Source: an uncultured Eubacteriales bacterium | GTDB taxonomy: Bacteria; Bacillota; Clostridia; Christensenellales; CAG-138 | Length of the DNA: 64,000 nt | NCBI GenBank assembly: GCA_902802575.1 | Contig: CADCMN010000001.1 | Coordinates: 18,410 to 82,409, forward strand | Direction: 5' to 3' | Shown here: positions 940 to 21,352 of the stretch, one piece after another | Layout: every line of letters begins with the position of its first letter | Numbering within the stretch: the first letter of the stretch is position 1 | Made by a program: the position numbers and the translations under genes | Notes under the pieces: generated by a model | Databases searched by the model: none | Seen by the model: only the letters and a program-made list of their open reading frames with translations | What the model was told of the DNA's origin: nothing

Positions 940-2007
940 ATGTTTTGCGGTAATTGCGGAAAGATGATACGGGACGAAGCCACCTTCTGCCCGTTCTGTG
1001 GAAAACCGGTGAAAGCGAGAAACGCTTCCGCACGGGTCTCGCCGCCCATGCCATCCACCGAACCGGTCGATAAGGATGGGATTCGTAAGCCTGTTGCGAA
1101 GCAGCCGGCAGCTTTTACGCCCCAAGAGAAGGGGGATCGGGCGAATCGTGTTGTTGCGCCGGATATGGATCAAAAGGCTCCTGCCGTCGGCGGCCAGGAG
1201 CGGCGCCCCCGGCCAACCCGTCCGGCGGAGAGCGCGCGCGAGGCAGGCCGAAGGAATGAGCAAGCCGCTGCAGCCGGAAAAAGCGGAAGGGATGCCGCCC
1301 GGCAAGGGGCGGCCGGAAACAGCAAACGCAGGAAGACAGCCGGCAAGAGGGAGGATAGATCGTTCTTCCTTCTGTCCCTCTTTTCCAAATTGGCTCTGCT
1401 CCTGATCCCGCTCGCCGCCTACGTGCCCTATTGCCAGATCGCCTATTCCGCGGAACGGACGGCCGATATGCCCCTGTGGAAGCTGATCCTGGGCGGAACG
1501 TACACCATGGGCGCTTCCAATCCTCTGGCTTTTACCCTGAAAGCTCATCCCATTCTGATTGCCCTGCTGGCGCTTCCCCTGCTGGCGGTGCTGATCTCCT
1601 GCTTCAGAAGGACCAGGGCAAAGCTGCCCATCGCTTCCCTGATGCTGCAGGCCGACGGGGCGGCGGTGTTGATACTGAACATTCGGACGCTGCGGACCAT
1701 TCAGAGCGCGGTGGAGGGACTGTCCCTGGACACCTTTGAAAAACAGGTTGTCAGCATGAATGGGATCATTGTCAAATGGGTCCAGAACGCCATCGCCCAA
1801 AATAAGGCCATGGCGGATACCTTCTATGTGACGACGAAACTTGGCTTCTGGCTGCTGCTCATACTTGGCGGCCTCATGGCGCTGCTGGGCGTGATTGGCA
1901 TGATCCTGTGGATCGTGTATCTCTTGCGGAAGACGGAAGACGCGGAGGCGGATGACGACGAGGCCGAAGAGGACGATGTGCCGGAACTGGCGGAGGATGA
2001 ACTATGA
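940..2007 (+). CDS. zinc-ribbon domain membrane protein
   Basis: 355 aa. N-terminal CGNCG..CPFCG ribbon, Arg/Ala/Pro-rich low-complexity linker, about 4 hydrophobic TM segments, acidic D/E tail. Stop overlaps next start (ATGA at 2004-2007). Confidence 0.7.
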   Translation: MFCGNCGKMIRDEATFCPFCGKPVKARNASARVSPPMPSTEPVDKDGIRKPVAKQPAAFTPQEKGDRANRVVAPDMDQKAPAVGGQERRPRPTRPAESAREAGRRNEQAAAAGKSGRDAARQGAAGNSKRRKTAGKREDRSFFLLSLFSKLALLLIPLAAYVPYCQIAYSAERTADMPLWKLILGGTYTMGASNPLAFTLKAHPILIALLALPLLAVLISCFRRTRAKLPIASLMLQADGAAVLILNIRTLRTIQSAVEGLSLDTFEKQVVSMNGIIVKWVQNAIAQNKAMADTFYVTTKLGFWLLLILGGLMALLGVIGMILWIVYLLRKTEDAEADDDEAEEDDVPELAEDEL

Positions 2008-3903: not shown

Positions 3904-6900
3904 ATGAAAAAGAGAGTGATCGCGGCAGTTTTTGCCTTGCTCATTTGTATCATGGCATTATCCATAAACGCTTCGGACTCGTATGCCGATACGAATGGAC
4001 ATACGCGAGCAGAAGCCGTTGCATGGGCAAAAGGAATGGAAAACACAGCCCAAAAATACTATACCCAACCGACGACGTTGGAATGTATGGATTTAGCCGG
4101 TCATTACTATGCATATCTTGGTCACCCCGTCTATAACCTTGGTTGCCCAAATTATATTATTGCAAATACCAATAACAGAGCCGGCGAGAGGGCGTCAACC
4201 GATTTGGGATGGGCTATGTACGGCAGCGATACGGATCCCATGCCCGGAGACCTGGTTCTGTGGCAAAATATAAATTATGGTCATATTGGAATTGTGCTTG
4301 AAGTCTATTCAGATTCATTCCAATATATCGATTATAACGGAAACGGTGCGCACTGTGGCGGCGTGATCCGTTCCATAGAAGGGAAGCGTAGTTTTGACAG
4401 AATAATCCGGCCTGATTTTCCAGACAAATTGACCCTGGACGTCAACGGCTGGCTGGACGGGAAAGACGTGACCAACGTCTATGGCTACGGCACGTTCGAT
4501 ATGTACCTGGGCGGAACCCGGGTGAAGCAAAGCGAAGGCGATTATTGGAATCAGGAAGTCAAGACGGGCACATCCTACACGATAAAGAATGTCAAAGCCG
4601 CCGACGGCAAGGTGTTCGCCGGGTTCAAATCCGGCAAGTACAAGGGGACGGTGTCGCAGAACACCACCGTCGTCATGGAGTTTCGCACCCTCAACAGCAA
4701 GGAATGGGTCAAAAAGCATTCCCCGGCGCAGACAAAGTCCTTTGGCGGTCATACCTACAAGTATTATGCCGACAAGGTGACCTGGATCGAGGCGTTCAAT
4801 TATTGCCAAAGACTGGGCGGCCATCTGGTGGTGATCGATTCAAAGGAAGAGAATGCTTTCGTCAGCGGCCTGATCAAGGAAACCGTCTGGCTGGGCGCGG
4901 TGGATTCCCTGAAGGAGGGCACTTTCATTTGGCTCGACGGTAAAAACATGTCTTACAGCAATTGGGCGACCAACCAGCCGGACAACGACAAGAGCAATGC
5001 CGAGGGCGGGGAGGACTTCGTGTCCATGTATGGACCGGAAACCAGCCAGAGCGGCAAATGGAACGATGTGTACAGCTACGCCCAGTACGGTTTCGTCTGT
5101 GAGATCGACAAAGATGACAATCGCTATACTCTGGACGTGAACGGCTGGCTGGACGGGAAGGAACTGGACAACATCCAGGGCATCGGTACCTTCGATTCCT
5201 ATATCGACAACAAGAAGACTGAAAACGACATCTACGATTATTACAACACCATCCTGCCCAGCGGCACCAAGTATGAGTTCAAGGACATCAAGGCCGCCGA
5301 AGGATATGAGTATGTGGGCGTAAAAAGCGGCTCCCTTTCCGGCACCATGAACGGGAACGTCAAGATCGTGCTGGAGTTCCGCAAAAAGGCGGAACCGTCC
5401 TTCACCTTCCAGGTGGATACAAACAAGTTCGAGGTGGGGGAGACCTATGCCCAGATCGGGTATTTCAAGGTCTATTCCAATATAGATGTGAACCAGATAA
5501 AGCTGGTGGGTTGTGCGCTTTACGCCGCAGACGGCACATATTTGGCTGGCGATGAGGAAAGCGCCTATGCGCAGGGTGACCATCTGACCCATTATTTCCA
5601 CATCAGCGGCGATTCCGGGGAGCAGGATATCCGCTATGCCCTTTCGCCCAACACGAAGTATTACGTGCGCATGTACGTGATCTGCGAGGGAAAGAAGTAT
5701 TACAGCGACAAACAGGCGTTTACCACGAAGGGGTCGGCCGAACCGGCGCCGCCGCAGGTAGTGTATCACACGGTGACCTTCGATGCCGGTGGCTACGGCG
5801 TGTCCTCCGAGACCTCCCGACGGGTGGAGCACGGCAAACCCATCGGTGAGCTGCCGAAGGTGACGAAGACCGTGGATACCCATGAGCCGTTCTTTTTTCG
5901 CTGGGATACGCCGGCTGAGACCATCGTCACCTCGGATATTACCGTGACCGCCATTTGGAAGTGGGGGACGCCGCCTCCGATAACGCCGACGCCTACGCCG
6001 CGGACAGTGACGCCCACGCCCACCAAGAAAACCACGGTCACACCCACGCCCACCAAGAAACCTACGATCACACCGACGCCCCGGCCGGTGACGCCTGGGC
6101 CGACAACGTCCCAAAGCGCATATGTGACGATCAGCGGCTTGAAGAACAAGCTGAGCGTTTGGAAGGAGGCAAATAATCAGGGAGGGCGCCTTGGATACGC
6201 GTATAACGGCGACGTGTTTGAGCTGCTGGCGCTCAAGGGGGATTGGTACATGATCCGCTACAACGGCAAAATAGCGTATGTCACCGGCGAGCATGTGTTC
6301 GCGACCAATACCGATCTGGTGCCTCATTATAAGTCAGACCCTACCCCGACGCCCCGCGCATATGTGACGATCAACGGGCTGAAGAACAAGCTGAGCGTTT
6401 GGAAGGAAGCGAACAATGAATCAGGCCGACTGGGATACGCCTATAACGGCGATGAGTTCGATCTGCTGTCGGTCATAGGGGAATGGTATGAGATCCGATA
6501 TAACGGTATGACCGGATATGTGACCGGCGATCATGTGTATGCGACGAATGAAGCTCTCGTTCCGCATACGGACAAGAACTGGTGGACGTATACCCCGAAA
6601 CCGACGCCGAAACCCACGCCCAAGCCCACGCCGACCAGAGAAGTCTATGTCACGGAGCCTCCTGCTTTCGTCACAGAGCCGCCACCCGAGGTGTATATCA
6701 CTCAGCCGCCTGTCACGGAGGGCCCTGCCCAAAGCGTCATCACGGAACCGCCACAGCAGACGCCGTCCCCGGAATCTGATGTTCTCTTGCCCACGCTTTC
6801 TGCGGCGAATATGCCGACCGAGTCCGCCGACACTGGCGGGGCTGAGACGGAGCCGTCCCCGAAAGCGAGGAAGGACGCGGAGGCGACCGTCACGAAGCGG

Positions 6901-7074
6901 CCTAAGTCGGGAAGGACCGCCTCCACGGAGGAGGATGACGATCCGAAATCCGATGTCCGGCTGGGCATCGCCCTTATCGGCATCGGAGGCATGCTGGTGG
7001 CCAGCCTGGGCGGCGTCGCCGCCATCCTCATCCACCGCCGGCGGATCAATTCCAAAAAGTACAGGAACAGGTAA
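3904..7074 (+). CDS. secreted multidomain wall protein: CHAP amidase + C-type-lectin-like domain + Listeria-Bacteroides repeat + 2x SH3b + C-terminal membrane anchor
   Basis: 1056 aa with signal peptide. CHAP-type Cys/His context (LECMDLAGHYY; PGDLVLWQNINYGHIGIVLEV). CTLD motifs WIEAFNYCQRLGGHLVVIDSKEENAFV, WLGAVD, FIWLDG, QPDN, WNDV, FVCEI. Two flanking DVNGWLDGK domains. TVTFDAGG..FRWDT repeat. Two SH3b repeats between PT linkers. C-terminal TM followed by HRRR. Confidence 0.8.
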   Translation: MKKRVIAAVFALLICIMALSINASDSYADTNGHTRAEAVAWAKGMENTAQKYYTQPTTLECMDLAGHYYAYLGHPVYNLGCPNYIIANTNNRAGERASTDLGWAMYGSDTDPMPGDLVLWQNINYGHIGIVLEVYSDSFQYIDYNGNGAHCGGVIRSIEGKRSFDRIIRPDFPDKLTLDVNGWLDGKDVTNVYGYGTFDMYLGGTRVKQSEGDYWNQEVKTGTSYTIKNVKAADGKVFAGFKSGKYKGTVSQNTTVVMEFRTLNSKEWVKKHSPAQTKSFGGHTYKYYADKVTWIEAFNYCQRLGGHLVVIDSKEENAFVSGLIKETVWLGAVDSLKEGTFIWLDGKNMSYSNWATNQPDNDKSNAEGGEDFVSMYGPETSQSGKWNDVYSYAQYGFVCEIDKDDNRYTLDVNGWLDGKELDNIQGIGTFDSYIDNKKTENDIYDYYNTILPSGTKYEFKDIKAAEGYEYVGVKSGSLSGTMNGNVKIVLEFRKKAEPSFTFQVDTNKFEVGETYAQIGYFKVYSNIDVNQIKLVGCALYAADGTYLAGDEESAYAQGDHLTHYFHISGDSGEQDIRYALSPNTKYYVRMYVICEGKKYYSDKQAFTTKGSAEPAPPQVVYHTVTFDAGGYGVSSETSRRVEHGKPIGELPKVTKTVDTHEPFFFRWDTPAETIVTSDITVTAIWKWGTPPPITPTPTPRTVTPTPTKKTTVTPTPTKKPTITPTPRPVTPGPTTSQSAYVTISGLKNKLSVWKEANNQGGRLGYAYNGDVFELLALKGDWYMIRYNGKIAYVTGEHVFATNTDLVPHYKSDPTPTPRAYVTINGLKNKLSVWKEANNESGRLGYAYNGDEFDLLSVIGEWYEIRYNGMTGYVTGDHVYATNEALVPHTDKNWWTYTPKPTPKPTPKPTPTREVYVTEPPAFVTEPPPEVYITQPPVTEGPAQSVITEPPQQTPSPESDVLLPTLSAANMPTESADTGGAETEPSPKARKDAEATVTKRPKSGRTASTEEDDDPKSDVRLGIALIGIGGMLVASLGGVAAILIHRRRINSKKYRNR

Positions 7075-7806: not shown

Positions 7807-9447
7807 ATGCAAGTTATGAAACGGATCCTGGTTTTCACCTTGGCCCTGCTGATGATCTTGGGAGGCTGCAGGACGGCGAACAAGCGCGAGAAGAAAGAGG
7901 ACGTCTTCGACCATCTGGCGGAAACAGATGAGCGGGGAAAGGAGACCCATGTGCCCGCTTCGCCGGAGCCGACCCCGGAGCCCACACCGGAGGCTACAGA
8001 GGAACCCATGGCGGAAGTGACGGCAGAGCCTACGGCGGAACCGACGCTCGAGCCCACTCAGGAACCGACGCCGGAACCTACCCAAGAGCCGACACCCGAG
8101 CCTGCGGCGGAGCCCTCGTCTCAGGCGCCCGTCGTTGAGAACGGTGTGCTGATAGCCAACGAGATCGAGCCCATGGAGACCCATGTGCCTGAGGCGACGA
8201 TCCTCAGCTGGTCCGGCAGCTTTAAGAAGGAAGAACAGATCGACAGTTATACCTTCACCACGGAGCGAGCCGGGGTGTACTGCTTCTTCTTTACGGACAT
8301 CCTGGATGGGCAGGAATACGCCATCCGGCTCACCAATGCCGCGGGGAACGCCGTGTTCAACGGAAACTATAACTATACGTATGGACTGGATGAATCCGCC
8401 GATCTTACGCTGAAGAAGGGCCAGACCTATACGCTGTCCGTGCGTCAGAAGGGCGACTATTACGGCGAGTATACCATCAACGTGGGCGTCCAGAAGGAAT
8501 ATCTGGAAGTGGGCGACTATACGGCCATCTACGACAGCTTTGAATTCGTTCATCAGCAGAACGGCTACACATTTGTCCCGAAGGTCAGCGGCACATACTG
8601 TTTCGGGGTGTCGGGGCTCCCGGAAGGATATTCCTGCGGCATCCAGGTGGTCAACGCCGCCGGAAAAGCCATCACCAACAGCAATTGGAATTACTCATAT
8701 TCGGACAAACAGGGGCATGCGGTCACCTTGTCCGCAGGCCAGACCTATGTGGTGAAGTACCGGGAGAGCGGGTATCGCGGTCCCTATTGCGTGGAAGTGG
8801 GCCTGTATAAGCAGGTGGGGGACGTGAGCAACGTCTTTGGGGTGGATGACAGCATCCAGTTTTTGAACCAGCGGAACCTGTACACCTTCGTCCCGGAGCA
8901 GACCGCCTCGTACCAGTTCGGCTTCTCAGGCATACCCGAGGGCTATTCCTATATGATCCAGGTCGTGAATCCGGTGGGTCAGGCCATCACCAACGGAAAC
9001 TGGAATTATTACTACGGCAACCACGAAAGCCAGTGGGTCAACCTGACGGCCGGACAAACCTATACCATCGTCGTGCGGCCCAGGAACGCGCTGTATGGGA
9101 AATACCGCCTCGACATCAGCGCCTTTTGTGCGCCGGTGGATGTGAAGCTGGACGAGCCCGTACAGGATTCGATCCAGTACCGCCTGCAGAGGAATATGTA
9201 CACCTTTACCCCGGGATCGGACGGCAAATACAGCATCGAACTTAGCGGCATGCCCCCCGAATACAGCTACTACATCCAGGTGTGGAACGGCATCGGGCAG
9301 ATCATCAGCAACGGGAATTGGAATTATACGTACAAAAACGGCAGTTCGCAGACCTTGGATCTGCAGGCCGGCCAGACCTACACCATCATCGTGAAGCAGA
9401 ACGGCAACTTCCTAAGCGACTACACCATCCGCATCCGCCGGAAATAG
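7807..9447 (+). CDS. lipoprotein with four tandem ~105-aa beta-sandwich (pre-peptidase C-terminal-like) repeats
   Basis: 546 aa. Lipobox-like LLMILGGC, Glu/Pro/Thr linker, four repeats each ending in (A/K)GQTYT..V......Y. Alternative start ATG at 7816 has the better RBS. Confidence 0.75.
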   Translation: MQVMKRILVFTLALLMILGGCRTANKREKKEDVFDHLAETDERGKETHVPASPEPTPEPTPEATEEPMAEVTAEPTAEPTLEPTQEPTPEPTQEPTPEPAAEPSSQAPVVENGVLIANEIEPMETHVPEATILSWSGSFKKEEQIDSYTFTTERAGVYCFFFTDILDGQEYAIRLTNAAGNAVFNGNYNYTYGLDESADLTLKKGQTYTLSVRQKGDYYGEYTINVGVQKEYLEVGDYTAIYDSFEFVHQQNGYTFVPKVSGTYCFGVSGLPEGYSCGIQVVNAAGKAITNSNWNYSYSDKQGHAVTLSAGQTYVVKYRESGYRGPYCVEVGLYKQVGDVSNVFGVDDSIQFLNQRNLYTFVPEQTASYQFGFSGIPEGYSYMIQVVNPVGQAITNGNWNYYYGNHESQWVNLTAGQTYTIVVRPRNALYGKYRLDISAFCAPVDVKLDEPVQDSIQYRLQRNMYTFTPGSDGKYSIELSGMPPEYSYYIQVWNGIGQIISNGNWNYTYKNGSSQTLDLQAGQTYTIIVKQNGNFLSDYTIRIRRK

Positions 9448-9521: not shown

Positions 9522-11180
9522 TCAGTTGAAATTCACTTTGACGGCGTTATATTTCTTTTTGGTCCAGTATTCCAGCGCCCAGGGGGAGGTGCGATAGGTG
9601 TCGTTGGGATACGCGGTCACAGAAATATTTTTGACCTTGGTATAATTGAATGTTTTCGCCACGGCGATGGCCAGATCCTGCACCTTTATCATCTGGTTCA
9701 TCAGCGAGACCGACGCCGAGTTCAGGGAATTGCTCTTGCGCTTGGCGGCCTTGTTCGCTTCGCTGTCCGCGGTGCTGTATTGCTTTTTCAGAGCGCTCAG
9801 GGCGGATTTGAATTCCGCAAACTGGGCGCGCTGCGCATCGGTATACTTGGGGGTGCCGGGTTCTCCGTTTTCATCCACCTGGGCCGCTTGGCGATCATCC
9901 TCATCGATCAGCTTCTGCACGTAGGCTTTGAGCGGGTCGCAGATATCCATATACTGAGGCCGGAGCATCTTGCACCAGGTATATCGGCCATAGGCCAGGG
10001 AGTATTTGGGGTTGGTCTTGACATCCACGCCATAGATCTCTTTGATCAGAGCCACCCGTTCGGACTGCTTCGTGAAGACGAAGTTCCAGTGAAACAGAGT
10101 GGCCGAATCCCCGCTCATGGAATGGGCGCCGATGTTGTCCGGATCCAGCTTGTAGCCAAAGAGGGCCAAGGCGGCGGTCTGCTCCGGCGTGCAGTTTGTG
10201 AACAGCACTCCATCGAAAGAGGCCAGGATCTCGGGCACCTTCAAAACGAGATTCTCTTCCTTCATCTTTTTGAAGATGGCCACCATCATGTTCTTCTGCC
10301 GTTTGACACGGTTGCTGTCTCCGGTGGGCAGCTGCCCGTGTCCGGACTTGCGCACCCGCATATAATCCAAACAGGCCTGGCCGTCCATGTGCTGGAAACC
10401 GGCCTTATAGTAGCGCCCGCCGTTGTCGAAATTGCCTTCCAGGTTGTACCAAACGCCGCCGACGATGTCCACGATCTGTTTCACTGATTCCATGGTCACG
10501 GCATAATAGTAATCCACATTGATGCCGCCCAGCATCCATTCGGCCGCTTCGCACACCTTTTCGAACCCTTCCCCGTTCTCACAGAACAAGCCGTAGTTGG
10601 TGCCGTCCGTGCCGCAGTTGAGAGCCGCGTTGAGCTTGTATACGCCCTCCACGCCGGGAATGCTGGCATAGGTGTCTCGGGGCAGGGAAATGAGATCCAC
10701 CCGGTTTTCGTTGAAGTTGACGGCGCAGACGATCATCACATCGGAATGGAAGGAATTGCCGCCCTTGCCTGACCAGTTGTTGATCCGTGCCGATTCATAG
10801 TCCACGCCGATGAACATGATGTTGACGATGCCGTCCATCATGCCGGTGTCTGCCACCTTGGCAAGCTCTTCATAGGGCCCGGGCGTTTGCGTGGGTTGGG
10901 GGGTGTCTTCGATCATGGTCGGGGAGCACGATTCTGGTACAGGGACTTCTGTTGCGTCTATAGAAGGTGCAGCCACGGGCACGAAAGGACTTGCGGTGGG
11001 CAGGGGAGTCGCCCGGACTGTACGATCATCCGTGTTGAACAGATCCTGGCCGGAAAACAACACGCCGGAAATCTTTCCGCCAAGCAGGACACCCAGGGCA
11101 ACGGCCAATACCGCTGCGGCGGAAAGCAGCGCGTAGGTTCGGATGCGTTTTTTCTTTTTGGAATCTTTGCCCATTGACAT
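9522..11180 (-). CDS. LCP (LytR-CpsA-Psr) family glycopolymer ligase
   Basis: 552 aa. N-terminal TM anchor. LCP core NIMFIGVD..SDVMIVCAVNFNENRVDLISLPRDTY. Long C-terminal extension. Confidence 0.85.
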   Translation of the reverse strand: MSMGKDSKKKKRIRTYALLSAAAVLAVALGVLLGGKISGVLFSGQDLFNTDDRTVRATPLPTASPFVPVAAPSIDATEVPVPESCSPTMIEDTPQPTQTPGPYEELAKVADTGMMDGIVNIMFIGVDYESARINNWSGKGGNSFHSDVMIVCAVNFNENRVDLISLPRDTYASIPGVEGVYKLNAALNCGTDGTNYGLFCENGEGFEKVCEAAEWMLGGINVDYYYAVTMESVKQIVDIVGGVWYNLEGNFDNGGRYYKAGFQHMDGQACLDYMRVRKSGHGQLPTGDSNRVKRQKNMMVAIFKKMKEENLVLKVPEILASFDGVLFTNCTPEQTAALALFGYKLDPDNIGAHSMSGDSATLFHWNFVFTKQSERVALIKEIYGVDVKTNPKYSLAYGRYTWCKMLRPQYMDICDPLKAYVQKLIDEDDRQAAQVDENGEPGTPKYTDAQRAQFAEFKSALSALKKQYSTADSEANKAAKRKSNSLNSASVSLMNQMIKVQDLAIAVAKTFNYTKVKNISVTAYPNDTYRTSPWALEYWTKKKYNAVKVNFN

Positions 11181-11348
11181 TCTCCTTTTTCATTATCGTT
11201 ATCATATACTGCGAGGGCCGTTCTTTCTACATCATTATCCTTGATATTACAAACAGTTTACAAATCTGTGACATGTTCGATGATTTTTCTCTTCCTTTTT
11301 TTCAACGCTGTGGTATAATGAAAAAAGTTTTTTAGGAGAAACCGAAGT

Positions 11349-12380
11349 ATGATGATCGTTATCCCTGCCTACCAGCCCGATGAAAAACTGACTGGCGTGG
11401 TGGATACCCTGATTGAAAAAACAAACTTTCCCATCGTCATCGTGGATGACGGCAGCCGTGAGGACTGTCAGCCCCTGTTCGCGGCGCTTTCTCAAAAGGA
11501 TCATGTCACGGTTCTGCATCATGAAGTGAACCGCGGTAAAGGCGCCGCCTTAAAGACGGCTTTTCAGTATGTGTATGAGAACTGTCCCGAAGCGGAGGGC
11601 GTGATCACAGTGGACGCCGACGGACAGCATCTCCCGGACGACGTGCTGCGGGTGGCGGAGGCCTTTGCCAACCATCGCGACGCTTTGGTCACCGGTTCCC
11701 GCCGCTTCACCGGCAAGGTGCCCTTCAAGAGCCGGGCCGGCAACGCCATCACGCGATTTGTGTTTGCCATTTCCACCGGCGTGAAGGTATATGATACGCA
11801 GACCGGCCTTCGAGCCTTCTCCCGGGAAAACATCCCCCGCATGCTCTCCTTGAAGGGGGACCGGTATGAATATGAGATCAGCCAGCTGCTCTATTGCTGC
11901 CGGGAGATGATCCCCATCGTTGAGGTGCCCATCGAGACCGTCTATATCGAGGACAACGCCTCGTCCCATTTCCGCGCCCTTCGGGACGGCTGGCGCATCT
12001 ACAAGATGATCCTCATGTTCGTCAGCTCCTCGCTGCTGAGCTTTCTTTTGGAGTACGTCCTGTTTCTGTTCCTGATCTGGCTCACCAAGAGCTGGGCCCA
12101 GGCGTCCTCCATCCTGTTCTCCACGGCGATCTCCCGGGTGCTGAGCTCCATCTTCAATTACCTGTACAACAAGCGCCTGGTGTTCGAGGCGGCCAACCGG
12201 ACCAGCTTTCTCCGGTATACCGTCCTGGCGCTGTTCATCTTTGGATGCCATTATGGGCTGCTGTATCTATTCACGGTGCTCTGCGGCATCCCGGAGTGGA
12301 TCTCCTATGCCATCGTGCAGCTGATCGTCTACCCCATGAGCTTCGTGCTCCAGCGTAAATTTGTGTTTGTAAAGGATTGA
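11349..12380 (+). CDS. glycosyltransferase family 2 fused to GtrA-like membrane domain
   Basis: 343 aa. GT-A signature IVIPAYQP..VIVDDGS..VDADGQH. C-terminal 4-TM GtrA-like part (FNYLYNKRLVFE). Confidence 0.85.
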   Translation: MMIVIPAYQPDEKLTGVVDTLIEKTNFPIVIVDDGSREDCQPLFAALSQKDHVTVLHHEVNRGKGAALKTAFQYVYENCPEAEGVITVDADGQHLPDDVLRVAEAFANHRDALVTGSRRFTGKVPFKSRAGNAITRFVFAISTGVKVYDTQTGLRAFSRENIPRMLSLKGDRYEYEISQLLYCCREMIPIVEVPIETVYIEDNASSHFRALRDGWRIYKMILMFVSSSLLSFLLEYVLFLFLIWLTKSWAQASSILFSTAISRVLSSIFNYLYNKRLVFEAANRTSFLRYTVLALFIFGCHYGLLYLFTVLCGIPEWISYAIVQLIVYPMSFVLQRKFVFVKD

Positions 12381-12387
12381 GACCGAT

Positions 12388-13596
12388 ATGAGAGCAAGCA
12401 GTAAAAAACGGATCCTGCGCTGGGTCATCCTGGATCTATGCGCGTTTTGTGTGATGGCGTATCTCATCTGCGCTCAGGTGTTCCGCTTCTTCCCCTGGAA
12501 ACCGGTGGATATAACCGAAACGATGACCGTTTTGGCCACGCCGACGCCCGTCGTGACAACGCCCACACCGGCGCCCACCGACACGCCCACTCCCACCGAA
12601 ACGCCTGCGCCGACCACTGAAGGAACGGACGCCCCCGGCGGCAGCGATCCCCAGGCGGCAGCGAGCGCTCCGGCGGACACGCCCGAACCCACCGCAACCC
12701 CCGAACCCACGCCGGCGCCCACGGAGGAGCCCAAGGGGCTGCTTCGCGGTAAATATGCGGAGAAGTTCTCCGCCAGCCAGGTCGTTTCCACCGAAAAGGA
12801 ATATCGCAGCGAAAACGTGGCCATAGAGATGACCTCTAAAACCGGTTATGTGTGCAAAAAATGTTATCATACGTCGGAGAATTACGGGACCTGCCCGTTC
12901 TGCGGAAGCGAGTTGACCAACAAGTCCGGCAAGAACGGCAACAAATTGACCTATATGGTGGCGGATATCTACGTACAGGATGTCTCCAGCCTGCGGACCG
13001 CATACAGCGACAGCAATCAGAAGAGAGTTAAGGATATGTGCAAGGAGAACAACGGTCTCCTGGCCATCAACGGGGACATGTACATGACATCCCATAAAAA
13101 CAATTACGGATGGTTCGTCCGTAACGGGGTAGAGATCGCACGGCACAGCAAACTGCGCACCGATCTTTGCATACTGTATTCGGACGGTACCGTGGAGACC
13201 GTGGATATCCAGACCCAAACGGTGAACATTGAAGGTATCTACGCAAAGTACCCCCAGCAGATTTGGTACTTTGGACCGGCGCTTCTGGGGGCTGACGGCT
13301 CAGCCAAGGATACATTCACCATCGGCAGAAATGTGGCCGGCAACAATCCCCGTTCTGTATTTGGATACTATGAACCCGGCCACTATTGCTTCATCACGGT
13401 GGACGGCCGGGATAATGATAGGGGCATTTCCATGGCGGAGCTGTCCATGCTCTGCGCGGATATGGGCATGGCCGCAGCGTACAACATGGATGGAGGCGGC
13501 TCGTCCTGTATGTATTTTGCCGGAAAGAACTACGGGCAGAACACGCGCGGTACAACCGATATCGTCTACATAACTGAACCTGCAAAGGAGAATTAA
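12388..13596 (+). CDS. phosphodiester glycosidase (NAGPA/DUF2233) family protein with inserted zinc ribbon
   Basis: 402 aa. Signal anchor, Pro/Thr/Glu linker, CKKC..CPFCG ribbon, LLAINGDMY and AYNMDGGGSS family motifs. Confidence 0.8.
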   Translation: MRASSKKRILRWVILDLCAFCVMAYLICAQVFRFFPWKPVDITETMTVLATPTPVVTTPTPAPTDTPTPTETPAPTTEGTDAPGGSDPQAAASAPADTPEPTATPEPTPAPTEEPKGLLRGKYAEKFSASQVVSTEKEYRSENVAIEMTSKTGYVCKKCYHTSENYGTCPFCGSELTNKSGKNGNKLTYMVADIYVQDVSSLRTAYSDSNQKRVKDMCKENNGLLAINGDMYMTSHKNNYGWFVRNGVEIARHSKLRTDLCILYSDGTVETVDIQTQTVNIEGIYAKYPQQIWYFGPALLGADGSAKDTFTIGRNVAGNNPRSVFGYYEPGHYCFITVDGRDNDRGISMAELSMLCADMGMAAAYNMDGGGSSCMYFAGKNYGQNTRGTTDIVYITEPAKEN

Positions 13597-15321: not shown

Positions 15322-15398
15322 GGGGATGTAGCTCAGCTGGTTAGAGCGCTGTGTTCACATCGCAGAGGTCTAGGGTTCGAGTCCCTACATCCCCACCA
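15322..15398 (+). tRNA. tRNA-Val (anticodon CAC)
   Basis: Manual cloverleaf. Acceptor GGGGATG/CATCCCC, D stem GCTC/GAGC, anticodon stem CTGTG/CGCAG with loop TTCACAT, T arm TAGGG-TTCGAGT-CCCTA, discriminator A, encoded CCA. Confidence 0.9.
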
Positions 15399-15437
15399 AA
15401 GAAACAGCCACCCAATGCGAGACACCGATAAGGAAGT
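15375..15437 (+). repeat. left arm of interrupted long palindrome (tRNA-Val T-loop through 3' trailer)
   Basis: Inverted match to 25517..25582 in three identical blocks: gttcgagtccct (12), accaaagaaacagccaccc (19), accgataaggaagt (14). Confidence 0.85.
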
Positions 15438-15583
15438 AAACAAATCATATCGGGTTTCGCAGTAAGGGCAAAGGATTTCGGAGAGAGTGAAAAAGCTCTC
15501 TCCGATTTTCATGTTTGCACATTTGTGTTTCTGTGAAGATGCTGATATGCTGAAAGCAGAAAAACACAAAGGAGGTGTGAAAC

Positions 15584-15958
15584 ATGGAAAAGTACATTGT
15601 GGATGAGCAGAACGGATTGGAGTATGAATTGGTCGGGGATTATTACATCGTCGCCGGTGAGGACGAACCGCCGGCGAGACCGATCGGCGTATGGGGCACT
15701 ATGCGGCGCGACTATCTGAAACGGTACCGGCAATCGCTGTATTATCAACTGTTGCTTTCGGGCAAACTGAACGATCACCTTGCCGACATGGAAGAACAGG
15801 CGCAGGATTTGATGTGGACGCTGACAAAGCAGATGGCAAAAGCTGAAGGCGTGACTGAGGAATTGAAACGCAAAGATCAGATGGCGTGGGTAGGCGCGAT
15901 GAACAGCATTCAATCTCGCGTGAGAGAAATAGTTAATCATGAATTGATTTTCTCATAA
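15584..15958 (+). CDS. tnpV: TnpV family protein
   Basis: 124 aa. Family-typical IGVWG..R.YLK..R...Y..LLLSGKLN.HLAD..EQAQ..., AEGVTEELK..DQMAWVG.MN and ELIFS C-terminus. Confidence 0.8.
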   Translation: MEKYIVDEQNGLEYELVGDYYIVAGEDEPPARPIGVWGTMRRDYLKRYRQSLYYQLLLSGKLNDHLADMEEQAQDLMWTLTKQMAKAEGVTEELKRKDQMAWVGAMNSIQSRVREIVNHELIFS

Positions 15959-15970
15959 CAGCCGTATGAG

Positions 15971-16006
15971 AATGCTCGTCGGATTCGTACCCGGCGAGCA
16001 TTTTTC
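15971..16006 (+). terminator. intrinsic terminator after tnpV
   Basis: aatgctcg..cgagcatt hairpin followed by ttttt. Confidence 0.75.
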
Positions 16007-16016
16007 ACAGATTCGG

Positions 16017-17027
16017 TCAGGATTGCAGAGCTTTCAATACCTCTCCACTGTCGCCGTCGATACAGATGGAGTACGGCTTGATCTGCTTCGGGCAGATCGC
16101 TTCGTTATAGTTTAGACAGGCGTAGACCGCATTCGGGTTCTCCACGGTCAGCGCCCAGAAGGGGTATTTGATGATGATCGGCGTATTGGCGCCCACGCCG
16201 ATCTCTAAGTACAGAACGTGCTTTTCCTTGCACGATTCCAAAAAGGCGGCGTAGCGAGCCGACGCTTCGCGCCAACCGGCGTCTTCCACGAAGGTATCGT
16301 CGGCGCGCAGATTCATCGTGACCGCGCTCCCGTCGTCGGGGCAGCGCGGGATCAGTTCGTGGGGAAGACGCATGGAGATCAGCCGATCCCTCGGAATCTG
16401 AAAGACACCGTTCCCGTCCGGAATAAAGCGCTGGGCAGCCATTGCTTTGATTACCCAGTCCCGATTGTCGTACGTCTTGCCGTTTTTTCCGCTGATCGTC
16501 TGGAACAGCCCGTAATCCCCCTGCGTATAGAACAGGCGTTTTTTTTCGAAGCCCGCACGCTGAAACTGATGATCCACGTTGGTGGTGATCACGAAATAGT
16601 TTTTATCCTTGACCAACGCAAGCAGATTCTTATAAACCGGCTTCGGCGCGTCGATATAGCGGTTATAGTAGATATGCCGCGCCCACCATGCCCAGCGTGT
16701 TTCCTCGTCCGGGAACGGATAAAAACCACCGGAATACATATCCGTAATCCCAAACTGCTTTTTGAAATCGAAGAAAAACCGCTCGAAGCGTTCGCCGGAA
16801 TAGGTCAGTCCCGCGGCAGTGGACAGGCCCGCGCCCGCGCCGATCACGATCGCGTCGGCCGTCTCCAATTCGTGTTTCAGCAGGGCGATGTTCTCCTCAC
16901 GGCTGCCTGTTCCGTAGGAAAGTCCGGCGCGGAACGACCGCACTGCGGCAAGCCCCTTTTCGATTGTTTCAAGATACCCATTGGGCTGTTCATGATAAGA
17001 GCGCTTCATAGTATCTTCTGTCCTCAT
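16017..17027 (-). CDS. SIR2 family protein, SirTM-like (macrodomain-linked sirtuin)
   Basis: 336 aa (start may be Met-7 at 17009). IGAGAGLSTAAGL, ITTNVDHQF and YTQGDYGLFQ motifs. Overlaps the upstream macro gene by 20-38 nt. Confidence 0.8.
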   Translation of the reverse strand: MRTEDTMKRSYHEQPNGYLETIEKGLAAVRSFRAGLSYGTGSREENIALLKHELETADAIVIGAGAGLSTAAGLTYSGERFERFFFDFKKQFGITDMYSGGFYPFPDEETRWAWWARHIYYNRYIDAPKPVYKNLLALVKDKNYFVITTNVDHQFQRAGFEKKRLFYTQGDYGLFQTISGKNGKTYDNRDWVIKAMAAQRFIPDGNGVFQIPRDRLISMRLPHELIPRCPDDGSAVTMNLRADDTFVEDAGWREASARYAAFLESCKEKHVLYLEIGVGANTPIIIKYPFWALTVENPNAVYACLNYNEAICPKQIKPYSICIDGDSGEVLKALQS

Positions 17028-17796
17028 CCTTGAATACGTTAAAGATCACGCGGTCGATCTGCCCTTCGTGCGTTTGCATCCAATCCTCAACCGCTTGAAC
17101 CGCGATCTCGGCGGCACGCTGCTGTGGAAAGCCGAACACACCCGTGGAGATACAGCAGAACGCGACAGAGCGCAGCCCTTTTTCGGCGCACAGATTGAGC
17201 GTGTTGGTGTAGCAATCCGCTAAGTCTTGTTCCAACGCAGGGGTGAGCCGACCGGACACGATGGGGCCGACGATGTGGATCACTTTCTTGGCGGGCAGGT
17301 TATAGGCGTCCGTCAGCATGGGCACGGCGGTCGGCTGCTCGTAGCTGCTGCCGTATCTTGCCCGCAGCCGATTCATCTGCCGATTGCACTCCGCGCGAAG
17401 TTGGACACCTGCAAATGTATGAATACAGTTGTCGATGCAGGTGTGCATGGGCACAAAGCAGCCCAGCATCTGCGAGTTGGCGGCATTCACAATGGCGTCT
17501 ACAGAAAGGCGCGTGATGTCGCCCTGCCAGATGGAAAGATAATCCCGAATAACGGGAATCTCCTTGACCGTTACGATCCCTTTTTCGGCATTCCGTTCGA
17601 TCAGATATTCGTCTTGGATCGCAAGCACCTCGTCCGGCAGCGCCTTCGGCAGACGAATGTTCATCAGAGAGCGAAGAATCCTTCGCTTTCCTTCCGAATC
17701 GGAAGGCGTCTGCAGGTCTCGGTATGTACCGGAATCTTCTTTGAAAGCCTCCACCAGATAGTCGAGGCGCTGATCGTTTGTCATTTTCTCATTCAT
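16990..17796 (-). CDS. macro domain protein (protein-ADP-ribose hydrolase, MacroD-like)
   Basis: 268 aa. WQGDITRLSVDAIVNAANS, IHIVGP and SVAFCCISTGVFGFP motifs. Confidence 0.85.
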   Translation of the reverse strand: MNEKMTNDQRLDYLVEAFKEDSGTYRDLQTPSDSEGKRRILRSLMNIRLPKALPDEVLAIQDEYLIERNAEKGIVTVKEIPVIRDYLSIWQGDITRLSVDAIVNAANSQMLGCFVPMHTCIDNCIHTFAGVQLRAECNRQMNRLRARYGSSYEQPTAVPMLTDAYNLPAKKVIHIVGPIVSGRLTPALEQDLADCYTNTLNLCAEKGLRSVAFCCISTGVFGFPQQRAAEIAVQAVEDWMQTHEGQIDRVIFNVFKDEDRRYYEALLS

Positions 17797-17801
17797 GTGC
17801 G

Positions 17802-18428
17802 TTACCTCTTTTCCACAGCGCTAACAGGACAGACCTCCATACAGTTTCCGCAATGCAGGCAGTGCGCCTGATCGATCACCAACGGTACGCTATCCACACA
17901 AATGCACTGCTGCGGACAGACCGGTACACAGGATCGACACCCGATGCAGGCGTCCGTGATGAAATATCCCTCAGTTTTTCTCTCTGCGCCGCCGAAGGTG
18001 AAGGACGCCCGCTCAATCGGCTTCTTGGAAAGATCGAACCATTCACCGCTGCCCTCATAGATGTGGAAAACGGTCAGCGCGTGCATGGACTCCTCTGTGG
18101 GATAGATCTCCCGCATATACGGGTTCTTTTCAAAAAGCATCGATATCGCTTCGTAACCGAGTTCTCTGACCTTTCCTCGAATGGAAACCGCAACAGAGGT
18201 CATAGTCGTTTCGCCCTTTATTGCGGTCAAAGCAAGAAAGCCACGCTTCTTGAGACGGTCATAGAAGCCCTTGCCTTTTGCTGTGAGGAAATATAATCCG
18301 TTTCCATCGCTGTCCATCATGTCGATGGCGGCGGTCACAGGCAGGCCTTCGTCATCTACCGTTGCGACAACAGCCGTATGGATTTCATTTACCAAGTAGG
18401 CGAGATAATCTTTCGTATTCATATCCAT
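17802..18428 (-). CDS. pyridoxamine-5'-phosphate-oxidase-like flavoprotein fused to 2x[4Fe-4S] ferredoxin domain
   Basis: 208 aa. N-terminal split-barrel-like region. C-terminal CIGCRSCVPVCP and CLHCGNCMEVCP. Confidence 0.75.
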   Translation of the reverse strand: MDMNTKDYLAYLVNEIHTAVVATVDDEGLPVTAAIDMMDSDGNGLYFLTAKGKGFYDRLKKRGFLALTAIKGETTMTSVAVSIRGKVRELGYEAISMLFEKNPYMREIYPTEESMHALTVFHIYEGSGEWFDLSKKPIERASFTFGGAERKTEGYFITDACIGCRSCVPVCPQQCICVDSVPLVIDQAHCLHCGNCMEVCPVSAVEKR

Positions 18429-18476
18429 GACTTTCGTGCAAAGAACGCCGGACGACGCTTTTGAAGTCCCTCGTTC

Positions 18477-18917
18477 TCATTCTCCATTTGCGATCCTTTC
18501 CAACGCGCCGTTTTTCAAGTCCTCGATGGTATATCGCTTCATCTCGTCCTCCATCGCGCATTGGATCGCTTTCAGCTTGTCATCCAAAAGCGCATGAATG
18601 TTACGTCCCACGGGACAATCCGGGTTAGGACTTTCATGGAAATGGAACAGATCGCCGTTTTCTACCGGCTCAATCGCTTCGTATACATCATAAAATGTGA
18701 TATCGGCAAGCGGTTTTGTGATGATTATGCCGCCGGTGCCTCGCAGAACTTCGATCAATCCCGCACTTTTCAACTGCGTCAGAATCTTGCGGATGATCAC
18801 GGGATTGGTGTTGATCGACCCTGCAAGAAAGTCACTTGTAACCTTATATTCATCCTTAAAGACTTCCACACAAGTGAAGATATGCAGCGCCACCGTGAAT
18901 CTGCTTGAAATCTGCAT
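18477..18917 (-). CDS. Rrf2 family transcriptional regulator
   Basis: 146 aa. N-terminal MQISSRFTVALHIF winged-helix signature. Confidence 0.8.
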   Translation of the reverse strand: MQISSRFTVALHIFTCVEVFKDEYKVTSDFLAGSINTNPVIIRKILTQLKSAGLIEVLRGTGGIIITKPLADITFYDVYEAIEPVENGDLFHFHESPNPDCPVGRNIHALLDDKLKAIQCAMEDEMKRYTIEDLKNGALERIANGE

Positions 18918-18932
18918 GAATACCGCCTCCTC

Positions 18933-19970
18933 TTAAAAGCATCTCTGCTTACGTTCGCTCTTGCAGCGCTCGATGTTCCCGCAACGATAGCAAAGCTCGT
19001 TGTCGCACATACCGCCGTTTTCAAAGTACGACAGGATGTTGTTCACGGTCGTCTCAGCGATGTTGTTCAGCGCTTCCTCGGTCAGAAACGCCTGATGCGA
19101 CGTCACGATCACGTTCGGCATGGAGATCAGCCGGGACAGCAAATCGTCATTCAGAATATGTCCGGAGCGATCTTCGAAGAAAATATCCGCTTCCTCCTCA
19201 TATACATCGAGACACGCCGCACCGATCTTGCGTGCCTTGATGCCGTCCAACAGCGCTTCCGCGTCGATCAGCCCGCCGCGGGAGGTGTTGAGGATTACGA
19301 CACCCTTTTTCATCTTCGCGATTGCATCAGCATCGATCATGTGCCGCGTTTCGTCTGTCAGCGGACAGTGCAGGGAGATCACGTCGCTCTTTGCAAACAG
19401 CTCGTCGAGCGTAACATATTCGATCCCGCTGTCTGCTGCCGGAAATCGGTCGTAGGCGATCACATGCATTCCAAAGCCGCGGCAGATATCAATGAAGATG
19501 CGGCCGATCTTGCCCGTACCGATCACGCCGATCGTCTTACCATGAAGATCGAAGCCGGTCAACCCTTTTAGTGAGAAATTGAACTCCCGCGTACGGTTGT
19601 ACGCCTTATGGATGCGGCGAACGGAAGTTAACAGAAGCGCCATCGCGTGCTCCGCAACCGCATAGGGCGAATAGGCGGGTACGTGAACGACGTGCACCTT
19701 GCCGAATGCGGCGCGGACATCCACGTTGTTATACCCCGCCGAACGCAGCGCGATCAGCTTGACCCCGTTTTTATAGAGCTTGTCGATCACGGCGGCGTTT
19801 GCCGTGTCGTTGACGAAGATGCAGACAGCGTCGCAGCCCGCCGAGAGCGCGGCGGTATCCCCGTTCAATTTGGTTTCAAGAAAGCGGAACTGCATGTCAT
19901 GCAGTTTTCCATATTTCTCGAATGACGGCTTGTCATATGGCTTTGCATCATAGAATGCAACTTTGATCAT
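18933..19970 (-). CDS. ldhA: D-isomer-specific 2-hydroxyacid (D-lactate-type) dehydrogenase with Cys-rich C-terminal tail
   Basis: Start chosen at MIKVAFYD (GGAGGG RBS 7 nt upstream). GVIGTGKIGR NAD motif. C-terminal CDNELCYRCGNIERCKSERKQRCF extension. Confidence 0.85.
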   Translation of the reverse strand: MIKVAFYDAKPYDKPSFEKYGKLHDMQFRFLETKLNGDTAALSAGCDAVCIFVNDTANAAVIDKLYKNGVKLIALRSAGYNNVDVRAAFGKVHVVHVPAYSPYAVAEHAMALLLTSVRRIHKAYNRTREFNFSLKGLTGFDLHGKTIGVIGTGKIGRIFIDICRGFGMHVIAYDRFPAADSGIEYVTLDELFAKSDVISLHCPLTDETRHMIDADAIAKMKKGVVILNTSRGGLIDAEALLDGIKARKIGAACLDVYEEEADIFFEDRSGHILNDDLLSRLISMPNVIVTSHQAFLTEEALNNIAETTVNNILSYFENGGMCDNELCYRCGNIERCKSERKQRCF

Positions 19971-20084
19971 GCACATCCCTCCGATTTGCTTTACATATAC
20001 GATTTCGCCGGACATATGCGGGCATACGTCCGGCGCTTCCTAATTGTATTCTACCGCAATTTGGCTGTAATTACAAGTATTACA

Positions 20085-20858
20085 TCAAAACTTGCCATTC
20101 TGGTTCTGCCACGTATCCTTGTCCGCGATTGTCTCCATGACGTCCCAGTGCTCAGCGATCTTGCCGTTCTCTACTCTCCACAGATCATAGTAAGAAGTAG
20201 GCACTCCGCCGAAGGTTCCTTCGGAAACCGCAAGAACATAATCGCCCTGTGCCAGCACCTGATGCACGGTGGTATAGATCATCTGGATGCCTGCTTCGGC
20301 AAGAGATGCCAGAGCTGCGCCGAGACCGGAGAGCCCATCAGCAATGCCGGTATTGTGCTGGATATACTTGTCGTCGTCGAAGTATTCAGGCGTTTTCTGC
20401 GGGTTATTTCCCTGCATCACGTCATACAGGAAGTTCTTGACCAACTCGCGGTTTGCTTCGGTCTTGTCAAGATCCTTCACGGAAGCGACATTATCGATCT
20501 GCGTATGACCGGAGGGGTTCGGTTCAGCTTTGGCAGCGAGGTTATCCCAATGCTCGGCGATCTTCCCATCTGCATCGAAGCGGAAGATGTCGAACGCAAC
20601 CTGCTCACCCATACCTGCGAAGTTGTAAACGGTCTGCAGGAATACCTTGTCGCCGTCCTCGTAGGCGCGGATGTTGTTAACTGTGGTCTTCACAGGAGCG
20701 GAGCCAAGATAGGCAACGCTGCCGACAAATGCATCCGCACCGGTGCCGTAGGCTAGGTTGTGCTGGATATAGCCGGGAGCCAGAAGTTCCTTCGCGGTCT
20801 CGGTGTCGCCGGTAACGAAGCAGTTGATCAGAGTAAGGGCTTTTTCGATGTTTGTCAT
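20085..20858 (-). CDS. tandem SnoaL/NTF2-like fold protein
   Basis: Start at MTNIEKAL (AGGAGG RBS). Two similar halves, each with ..YIQHN.. and ..IAEHWD.. motifs. Confidence 0.65.
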   Translation of the reverse strand: MTNIEKALTLINCFVTGDTETAKELLAPGYIQHNLAYGTGADAFVGSVAYLGSAPVKTTVNNIRAYEDGDKVFLQTVYNFAGMGEQVAFDIFRFDADGKIAEHWDNLAAKAEPNPSGHTQIDNVASVKDLDKTEANRELVKNFLYDVMQGNNPQKTPEYFDDDKYIQHNTGIADGLSGLGAALASLAEAGIQMIYTTVHQVLAQGDYVLAVSEGTFGGVPTSYYDLWRVENGKIAEHWDVMETIADKDTWQNQNGKF

Positions 20859-21322: not shown

Positions 21323-21352
21323 TTGCTTTTTCGGCAAGGTGTGCCGTATAAT
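21323..21352 (+). promoter_or_regulatory. candidate sigma-70 promoter
   Basis: TTGCTT, 18 nt, TATAAT, inside a ~1.1-kb non-coding lower-GC stretch. Confidence 0.35.

Follow-up and report, generated by a model that had tools for sequence, protein, structure and literature searches.

What is a C-type lectin domain doing inside a bacterial cell-wall hydrolase, and where did it come from? C-type lectins are known from textbooks as immune and adhesion receptors of animals, and the question is raised by a single gene in a 64,000-nucleotide stretch of DNA from an uncultured Eubacteriales bacterium of the Christensenellales lineage CAG-138 (assembly GCA_902802575.1, contig CADCMN010000001.1, positions 18,410 to 82,409 of the forward strand; this whole stretch is referred to below as the window, and is numbered from its first letter). 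An earlier reading of the letters alone, here called the original prediction, had described in that gene an animal-type CTLD (C-type lectin-like domain) of canonical layout, with intact QPD and WND sugar-binding motifs, flanked by a duplicated domain containing the string DVNGWLDGK and fused to CHAP and SH3b domains, and had raised the prospect of its acquisition from a eukaryote or a phage. The analysis reported here indicates, from profile matching, sequence alignment and predicted fold, that the domain is a genuine long-form canonical CTLD. Comparison with its relatives places it in a large, established bacterial branch of the Lectin_C family, rather than pointing to its recent uptake from an animal or a phage. 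We favour the view that it acts as a Ca2+-dependent, glycan-targeting module of a peptidoglycan hydrolase.

All of the strings quoted in the original prediction are encoded by a single uninterrupted open reading frame (ORF) of 1056 residues, in which HTYKYY begins at residue 283 (nucleotide 4750), QPD occupies residues 358-360 (nucleotides 4975-4983), EDFVSM begins at residue 370 (nucleotide 5011), WND occupies residues 386-388 (nucleotides 5059-5067), FVCEI begins at residue 397 (nucleotide 5092), and DVNGWLDGK is found twice, at residues 179 and 411. The N-terminal part of the protein consists, in order, of a signal peptide, a CHAP domain, a first copy of the repeated domain (hereafter DVNG), the CTLD, a second DVNG copy and a presumed beta-sandwich; the C-terminal part consists of a Flg_new-like domain, a proline- and threonine-rich linker, two SH3b domains, a stalk rich in proline, threonine and glutamate, a transmembrane helix and a basic tail. 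The corresponding features are as follows.

3904-7074, plus strand: whole ORF, with its domain order taken from Pfam matches, repeats, composition and hydropathy
3904-3987, plus strand: Sec-type signal peptide, residues 1-28 (MKKR, a hydrophobic core, and SYA before D), from sequence inspection and hydropathy
4066-4338, plus strand: CHAP cysteine amidase/endopeptidase domain (predicted), residues 55-145, from Pfam PF05257
4426-4695, plus strand: DVNG domain copy 1, residues 175-264, from a phmmer self-repeat
4729-5112, plus strand: CTLD, residues 276-403, from Pfam, alignments to the Protein Data Bank (PDB), AlphaFold2 and Foldseek
5122-5388, plus strand: DVNG domain copy 2, residues 407-495, from a phmmer self-repeat
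5392-5739, plus strand: presumed beta-rich segment, residues 497-612, with homologous segments seen in the relatives P0055 and P0104
5758-5961, plus strand: Listeria-Bacteroides-repeat (Flg_new)-like segment, residues ~619-686, from Pfam PF09479 below threshold
5962-6114, plus strand: proline/threonine linker of 51 residues, residues 687-737, from composition
6115-6579, plus strand: two bacterial SH3 (SH3_3) domains, residues ~738-803 and ~827-892, from Pfam PF08239
6580-6957, plus strand: low-complexity stalk of 126 residues, residues 893-1018, from composition (P25 T20 E13)
6958-7071, plus strand: C-terminal transmembrane helix, residues ~1019-1043, and basic tail HRRRINSKKYRNR, from a hydropathy scan and sequence

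Family, fold and ligand residues of the lectin domain

The Pfam Lectin_C profile (PF00059) matches residues 291-400 (nucleotides 4774-5103) with an E-value of 1.8e-19 and a score of 70.9 bits against a cutoff of 22.6, and the match spans positions 2-106 of the 107 in the profile, which is nearly the whole model; a match of this quality is far beyond chance, and the observation of a CTLD is real. At E <= 0.1, Lectin_C was the only Pfam model that matched the region, with no FGE-sulfatase or similar family appearing. A phmmer search of all PDB sequences with the domain returned 191 carbohydrate-recognition domains (CRDs) at E <= 1e-3, including those of PLA2R, DEC-205, Endo180, aggrecan, CD23, ASGPR, MGL and MBP-A; among the matches listed (the best 60 of the 191), all belong to animal proteins. 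The identity between the CTLD and the animal CRDs of matching solved structure is 28-36%, and among animal CRDs in the PDB the highest score of a single domain against it is 76 bits.

An AlphaFold2 model of residues 170-500, computed from an alignment of 50 sequences, displays a predicted local distance difference test score (pLDDT) above 90 over the first DVNG domain and most of the CTLD; the second DVNG copy was modelled poorly in that same model. Secondary-structure elements of the modelled CTLD follow one another in the order beta-beta-alpha-alpha-beta...beta-beta-beta, and the long-loop region was modelled with high confidence except for one block of 10 residues (pLDDT 73). Foldseek comparison of the model with the PDB gave target-normalised template-modelling (TM) scores of 0.86-0.89 to the CRDs of SRCL, aggrecan, CD23, ASGR2 and MGL, and the superposition on the aggrecan C-type lectin domain had a root-mean-square deviation of 1.4 A over 124 columns. 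The CLec fold of the type found in diversity-generating retroelement (DGR) and FGE-sulfatase proteins was considered and rejected, because the long loop is present with both sets of Ca2+ ligands and only Lectin_C was matched.

The residues that would bind Ca2+ and sugar were placed by using the C-terminal half of the CTLD as a PDB query, which recovered single sugar-binding CRDs together with their alignments. In those alignments QPD falls exactly onto the QPD of CEL-I, which is specific for N-acetylgalactosamine (GalNAc) according to its PDB molecule name, and onto the QPD of a galactose-converted mutant of MBP-A (1AFA); WND falls onto the WND of the reference CRDs, E370-D371 onto the 'ED' of their 'EDC', and D334 and E338 onto the D and E of their 'TDEVTEG'. 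Five residues (Q358, D360, E370, N387 and D388), which we take from the MBP-A structure to be the ligands of Ca2+ site 2 and of the sugar, are in register with CEL-I and with the MBP-A mutant; at Ca2+ site 1, the counterparts of D334, E338, N361 and D371 in the references are D, E, N/D and D. Both Ca2+ sites are complete on paper, and the predicted set of Ca2+ and sugar ligands is intact. Conservation in a set of 42 proteins is 90% or higher at W329, G331, D334, E338, P359, E370, W386 and D388.

Only two cysteines are found in the CTLD, C301 and C399, and these align with the conserved columns of the outer disulfide (alpha1-beta5); the columns of the inner disulfide, as located by alignment to CD23 and MBP-A, are occupied by F372 (at the 'EDC' position) and S391 (at the 'WNDxxC' position). 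The domain therefore retains the outer cysteine pair of a canonical CTLD and lacks the inner disulfide. Alignment indicates that both inner cysteines are absent from CEL-I as well, and so their loss is compatible with a working lectin.

On these points the original prediction held up well: the canonical layout agrees with the Lectin_C score, the PDB matches and the predicted fold, and the QPD and WND motifs are intact and in register. A non-lectin fold and a misalignment of the ligand residues were both looked for, and neither was seen. Its account of two replaced cysteines needs correction in one respect, in that the phenylalanine at the 'EDC' position was rightly identified, but the second replacement is S391, from the same inner disulfide, and not the tyrosine before FVCE.

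Bacterial relatives and the DVNG partner domain

An exhaustive HMMER search of 1.84 billion representatives returned 29,794 proteins at E <= 1e-3; when the CTLD alone was queried by word-indexed homology search, no more than 2 short matches came up, and the protein itself was not among them. The best single-domain matches are a fragment at 98% identity (P0034), a protein of 1300 residues at 76% (P0055) and a fragment of 608 residues at 68% (P0104), all of which carry the CTLD in the same position; P0055 additionally possesses CHAP, SH3_3 and a C-terminal transmembrane helix. The next tier after these orthologues is made up of bacterial surface proteins with multiple CTLDs, at 38-46% identity, whose architectures include RicinB with 5-6 CTLDs and a dockerin; a C39-like domain with RicinB, 2 CTLDs, a cohesin and a dockerin; NlpC/P60 with 2 CTLDs and 3 SLH domains; CHAP with 2 CTLDs and 4 Flg_new repeats; CTLDs with LRR_EndoS; a CTLD with 3 CWB2 domains; and, in a protein of Bacteroidota type, HYR together with a T9SS sorting tail. 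Many-domain matches at 30-34% identity look eukaryotic, as in the case of P0003, with 16 CTLDs in addition to F5/8-C, LCCL and SUEL domains.

The relationship between these groups was analysed by extracting and aligning 173 CTLDs from 42 relatives, a sample biased towards the top matches. They split cleanly into 54 domains with all four cysteines, including those of the eukaryote-like multi-CTLD proteins P0003, P0005, P0008 and P0022 (only P0003 having been checked with Pfam), and 119 domains without the inner disulfide. The CTLD in the window, with its cysteine pattern C-F-S-C, falls in the latter group, in which position 372 is occupied by tyrosine in 82 domains and by phenylalanine in 14 (96 aromatic residues), the full set of site-2 ligands is retained in 91 of the 119 (76%), and the sugar-site tripeptide is EPN in 66 domains and QPD in 34. 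Outside the orthologue group, sampled bacterial domains score 83-111 bits against the CTLD and four-cysteine domains no more than 78. In a neighbour-joining tree, computed from this same top-match-biased sample and carrying no bootstrap support, 112 domains without the inner disulfide (from 33 proteins) join the CTLD before any domain with four cysteines does. The traits by which a bacterial clade without the inner disulfide and with a DVNG partner is defined here (F372/S391, a DVNG domain on the N-terminal side, and nesting within the tree) are all found in the protein.

The DVNG domain, of which the two copies are each about 90 residues long and 43% identical to one another, corresponds to the duplicated domain of the original prediction. 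With a Pfam limit as loose as E <= 10 the isolated copies remained without a family, and the PDB offered no sequence match. The domain was modelled by AlphaFold2 as an all-beta sandwich (pLDDT 95.7), for which Foldseek found only weak similarity (E >= 3e-3, TM about 0.5) to pilin and CnaB-type immunoglobulin-like domains of Gram-positive bacteria. This similarity was too weak for assignment to the pilin/CnaB family, and DVNG is put forward from its sequence as a candidate new domain family.

In the relatives, DVNG and CTLD alternate as units, with one to three such units per protein; DVNG also occurs without a CTLD, beside Peptidase_M23, CHAP and Flg_new. An N-terminal papain-fold domain (CHAP, NlpC/P60 or C39-like) is present in 9 of the 12 DVNG-CTLD proteins examined, and the anchors of these proteins are interchangeable, being a transmembrane helix in the 1056-residue protein and in P0055 and elsewhere SLH, CWB2, dockerin/cohesin or LRR_5 domains. 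DVNG is widespread in surface proteins of gut and rumen Clostridia (loci including L012-L037), and DVNG-CTLD is, as judged from the sequences, a repeated cassette found behind CHAP or NlpC/P60 in Clostridia metagenome-assembled genomes (MAGs) of such origin. A scan of GTDB species representatives yielded 26 loci, 25 of them in Clostridia-type (Bacillota) MAGs that include Ruminococcaceae, Oscillospiraceae, Lachnospiraceae, Eubacteriaceae and Christensenella, and that derive mostly from the gut of sheep, goat and cattle, with a few from human and mouse. The closest locus (L012, from Clostridia bacterium RGIG5797 of sheep ileum) is 71% identical. One DVNG locus (L036, CAMZIV010000036.1) is labelled as a 'Candidatus Saccharibacteria' MAG, the others being Clostridia; this label could reflect a binning error or a transfer.

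A putative targeting module and the alternatives to it

The enzymatic end of the protein is a CHAP domain (PF05257), matched over residues 55-145 with 31.7 bits against a cutoff of 26, in which C61, H127, D143 and N145 are the candidate catalytic residues. In P0055 and P0152 these residues are conserved, C61 being aligned to Cys, H127 to His and D143-x-N145 to (D/E)-Q-N; P0175 shares the cysteine and the histidine. By score and by conserved residues, the domain is a predicted amidase/endopeptidase of the CHAP type. SH3_3 (PF08239) is matched in two stretches with 51.6 bits, and the fusion of the lectin domain to CHAP and SH3b domains was thus correctly anticipated. A single PHROGs family, of unknown function, covers the proline/threonine linker and both SH3 domains (residues 688-878). 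The Flg_new-like segment scored 21 bits in isolation against a cutoff of 27 (E = 3.7e-4), and full Flg_new repeats come after the CTLD in relatives; the segment at residues 497-612 matched no Pfam family at E <= 10 in isolation. The hydropathy scan found only two hydrophobic segments, the N-terminal signal peptide and the C-terminal helix, and inspection of the 1056-residue sequence found no LPXTG motif.

The reading that we favour, and regard as somewhat more probable than the sum of its competitors, is that the CTLD, a product of the bacterial branch of the family, serves to direct a membrane-tethered peptidoglycan hydrolase to glycans in a Ca2+-dependent way. The protein would be exported by Sec and stay tethered by its C-terminal helix. 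Outward from the membrane would lie the 126-residue P/T/E-rich spacer, the two SH3b domains, the proline/threonine linker and the Flg_new-like segment, and further outward the presumed beta-rich segment, the DVNG-CTLD-DVNG unit and, at the tip, CHAP. The SH3b pair would engage peptidoglycan, and the CTLD would bind, in a Ca2+-dependent manner, a galactose-type sugar (3-OH equatorial, 4-OH axial) on a wall-associated polysaccharide, thereby placing CHAP on the wall that is to be cut. The wall in question might belong to the cell itself, as it grows or separates, or to neighbouring bacteria; action on neighbouring cells is also compatible with the arrangement, because the lectin and CHAP head lies distal. 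In this scheme, what we infer from the observed domains, fold, conserved ligand residues and recurrent fusion to CHAP or NlpC/P60 is that Ca2+ and sugar are bound, which type of sugar this is, that the hydrolase is active and what is targeted. The function put forward in the original prediction, lysis directed by glycans or adhesion to glycans of the host, is plausible.

The sugar-site tripeptide differs among close relatives, being QPD in the 1056-residue protein and in P0034, LPN in P0055/L012 and EPN in P0104, and multi-cassette proteins mix EPN with QPD. Since it differs so among close relatives, the site appears to evolve fast between species, which would suit a module for the reading of variable glycans. 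A bolder proposal, that the Ca2+-competent CTLDs of this undescribed Clostridia clade are exchangeable (EPN, QPD or other) heads of surface-displayed peptidoglycan hydrolases, for lectin-guided, contact-dependent lysis of neighbours selected through the glycans on their surface, in which a switch of tripeptide between close species would retarget the enzyme, is a doubtful one at present.

A number of observations count against a sugar-guided hydrolase. The residue that follows QPDN is Asp362 (QPDND), in contrast to the QPDNW of CEL-I and the QPDDW of the MBP-A mutant; the tryptophan after QPD in galactose-binding references stacks on the galactose ring, and an aspartate in its place means that affinity for galactose may be low, or that the ligand may differ. 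The tripeptide of a CRD specific for galactose or GalNAc is therefore present and the tryptophan that follows it is absent; in the sampled QPD domains of the bacterial type, that position is mostly A, S or T. Of the galactose-type label in the original prediction, what stands is the QPD in register; the replacement of the stacking tryptophan and the LPN and EPN of the orthologues speak against it, and specificity for galactose is only a weak prediction from the sequence. Leucine cannot ligate Ca2+, and the LPN of the 76% orthologue accordingly indicates that the canonical Ca2+ site is not strictly maintained among orthologues and that, as far as sequences show it, the protein family can do without that site. 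CHAP, at 31.7 bits, is a weak match, and its region brought up no meaningful PDB sequence. Dockerins and RicinB are present in several family members, which would fit the binding of plant or host glycans too. A functional link between the gene and the cell-wall glycopolymer genes just downstream of it (9522-13596), which are kept in strains of the same species, was rejected because those genes are not syntenic in L012. Finally, database and cluster look-ups gave no name or described function for the Clostridia DVNG-CTLD relatives, and in the literature no paper or structure was found on Clostridia CHAP/NlpC-P60-DVNG-CTLD proteins or on canonical CTLDs in Clostridia or in wall hydrolases.

Some of these same observations would suit an adhesin, in which the CTLD binds galactose or GalNAc glycans of host mucin or dietary plants, the DVNG domains are spacers, and CHAP is secondary or serves only in cell separation. 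The QPD motif, the long stalk with the lectin head at its outer end, the origin of the organism and its relatives from MAGs of ruminant, human and mouse gut, and the joining of CTLDs in relatives with the dockerin, cohesin and RicinB domains that characterise cellulosomal proteins binding polysaccharides are all in keeping with such a function. The fusion of a papain-fold wall hydrolase in three-quarters of the DVNG-CTLD proteins examined (9/12) is not expected of a pure host adhesin, however, and QPD is not followed by an aromatic residue for stacking; the shifts between QPD, LPN and EPN among close orthologues also fit variable microbial glycans better than conserved host ones. We consider an adhesin unlikely, if the most serious of the rivals to a targeting module.

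Less likely still is that the domain is not a lectin at all, and instead is a structural or protein-binding module, as in snaclecs, the CTLDs of natural killer (NK) cell receptors and antifreeze proteins, with QPD and WND inherited and unused for sugar. The LPN of P0055, which should disable Ca2+ site 2, the 28 of 119 bacterial-type domains without the full ligand set, and the possibility that loss of the inner disulfide loosens the long-loop region all lend this some substance. Against it, every ligand of Ca2+ sites 1 and 2 is present in the 1056-residue protein, the retention of the full ligand set in most bacterial-type domains suggests selection, the long loop is modelled confidently outside its one weaker block, and the GalNAc-specific CEL-I, as aligned, likewise has neither inner cysteine.

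Recent horizontal acquisition of the CTLD by a gut bacterium, from its animal host or from a phage, is very improbable. The organism lives in animal guts and all of the matching solved structures listed are animal CRDs, as noted above, but the sequences closest to the CTLD come from bacteria and have in common with it derived traits that are absent from the four-cysteine, eukaryote-like set, and the CTLD is embedded in a cassette with a partner domain found only in bacteria. At 0.53 (4-6 kb bin), the G+C content at the gene departs little from the 0.55-0.57 of the sequence around it. In a tblastn search of phages only 5 records matched, all of them distant (28-30% identity), and a phage origin was rejected on that account. 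Neither the 'animal-type' label nor the suggested acquisition from a eukaryote or phage is supported, since the closest relatives are Clostridia proteins with the same clade-specific traits and the CTLD nests among bacterial domains. An ancient transfer, in either direction, is still conceivable.

An artefact, in which a CTLD exon came to be attached to a bacterial gene through a chimera of assembly or through contamination with eukaryotic DNA, is suggested by nothing other than the unusual combination of domains, and is refuted by one uninterrupted ORF, by the same 1056-residue gene in four independent metagenome assemblies (L005-L008), by the 76% and 68% orthologues with the CTLD at the same position, by a syntenic copy in a GenBank MAG (L012), and by a G+C content near that of the flanking DNA.

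Gene neighbourhood and comparison with known systems

The same-species contigs were located among ENA metagenome assemblies by means of their GAPDH and GT2-GtrA genes (exact look-ups of the CTLD protein and of the LCP neighbour returned no record), and some are presumably of rumen or ruminant-gut origin, as their record names resemble the codes of such studies. In the four assemblies the gene differs from that of the window by 1-9 residues, with A318S as the only change within the CTLD and all of the ligand residues unchanged. A six-frame translation of the whole window contained no further copy of either CTLD or DVNG. The neighbouring genes are as follows.

940-2007, plus strand: zinc-ribbon membrane protein, from Pfam and synteny in L012
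2004-3866, plus strand: protein with a zinc ribbon, transmembrane segment and two SH3_3 domains, from Pfam and synteny in L012
7128-7778, plus strand: transmembrane and double-zinc-ribbon protein, from Pfam DZR and synteny in L012
9522-11180, minus strand: LytR-CpsA-Psr (LCP) ligase, from Pfam
11349-12380: GT2 fused to GtrA, from Pfam
12388-13596: NAGPA-family protein, from Pfam

The second of these genes overlaps the first by 4 nucleotides, and the order of the four co-oriented, tightly spaced genes between 940 and 7778 is kept in L012 at 37-53% identity; on this sequence evidence they form a possible operon. Beyond them, positions 7807-9447 encode a lipoprotein-like protein of 546 residues that contains four repeats (residues 111-225, 244-329, 354-435 and 460-541) and a linker rich in P/E/T, and for which no Pfam family scored above threshold. 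Further downstream, a segment of ~10.1 kb at 15417-25534 is present in the window and in L005 and absent from the same-species L006, the blastn match breaking off cleanly at positions 15416 and 25535 of the window. Among the genes of the segment, which begins right after a tRNA-Val gene (15322-15398), are an ORF for a large serine recombinase (23756-25468) and others of TnpV/ParB-like type; its G+C content dips to 0.48-0.51, and it looks like a strain-variable integrative element.

The occurrence of CTLDs outside animals is not new as such, since bacterial and phage Lectin_C proteins already bear names such as 'lectin-like protein' and 'lectin C-type domain-containing protein' in databases. 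One so annotated, from Flavobacterium phage vB_FspM_immuto (MW353177), is ~30% identical over the CTLD, has no DVNG domain, and belongs to a phage of a different host phylum. Compact or divergent CTLD folds, of the intimin/invasin type or the FGE-sulfatase type of DGR proteins, have a core without the long loop and the Ca2+ sites, and escape the Lectin_C profile. Among bacterial surface proteins, the N-terminal domain of the Thomasclavelia ramosa IgAse and the C-terminal domain of Legionella Lcl have a CTLD-type core that is divergent (PMC12237041), whereas the domain described here is a full canonical CTLD, found by sequence at the E-value given above.

Relative to the animal CRDs (CEL-I, 1WMY; SRCL, 2OX8/2OX9; the aggrecan domain, 1TDQ; CD23; ASGPR/MGL), the CTLD belongs to the same Pfam family and fold, with the same long loop, both Ca2+ sites and the QPD/E/WND ligand set in register. 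It differs from them in its low sequence identity, in having Phe372 and Ser391 in place of the inner disulfide, in its lack of a tryptophan after QPD, and in its carrier, which is a bacterial wall hydrolase and not a collectin, receptor or proteoglycan; its closest relatives, moreover, are bacterial. On the bolder proposal above, if it were true, the size and coherence of the bacterial clade would also reopen the question of whether sugar-binding CTLDs arose before animals.

Modular hydrolases of Gram-positive bacteria join a catalytic CHAP domain to a wall-targeting module such as SH3b, LysM, CWB2 or a choline-binding domain. The 1056-residue protein follows the same logic, in which non-catalytic modules decide where CHAP acts, and shares the SH3b domains; it departs from those hydrolases in the addition of a lectin domain, and in a C-terminal membrane anchor that leaves the enzyme at the distal end. 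A known binding domain would apparently be serving here, with an unannotated partner domain, as the targeting module of a wall hydrolase. Should the lectin indeed steer the lysin, this would represent a new targeting principle for bacterial wall hydrolases, and the EPN/QPD tripeptide would be a readable specificity code, useful for engineered lysins and for the probing of rumen glycans.

Also among the closest known systems are the Clostridia proteins built from one or more DVNG-CTLD units (P0055/L012, P0104, P0044, P0069, P0149 and P0150, and further P0152/L014, L013, L016 and L021). These share with the 1056-residue protein the cassette, the cysteine pattern and the Ca2+ ligands, and most of them also possess an N-terminal CHAP, NlpC/P60 or C39-like domain; they differ from it in the number of cassettes, which ranges from 1 to 3, in their anchors, and in the tripeptide (EPN, LPN or QPD) at the predicted sugar site.

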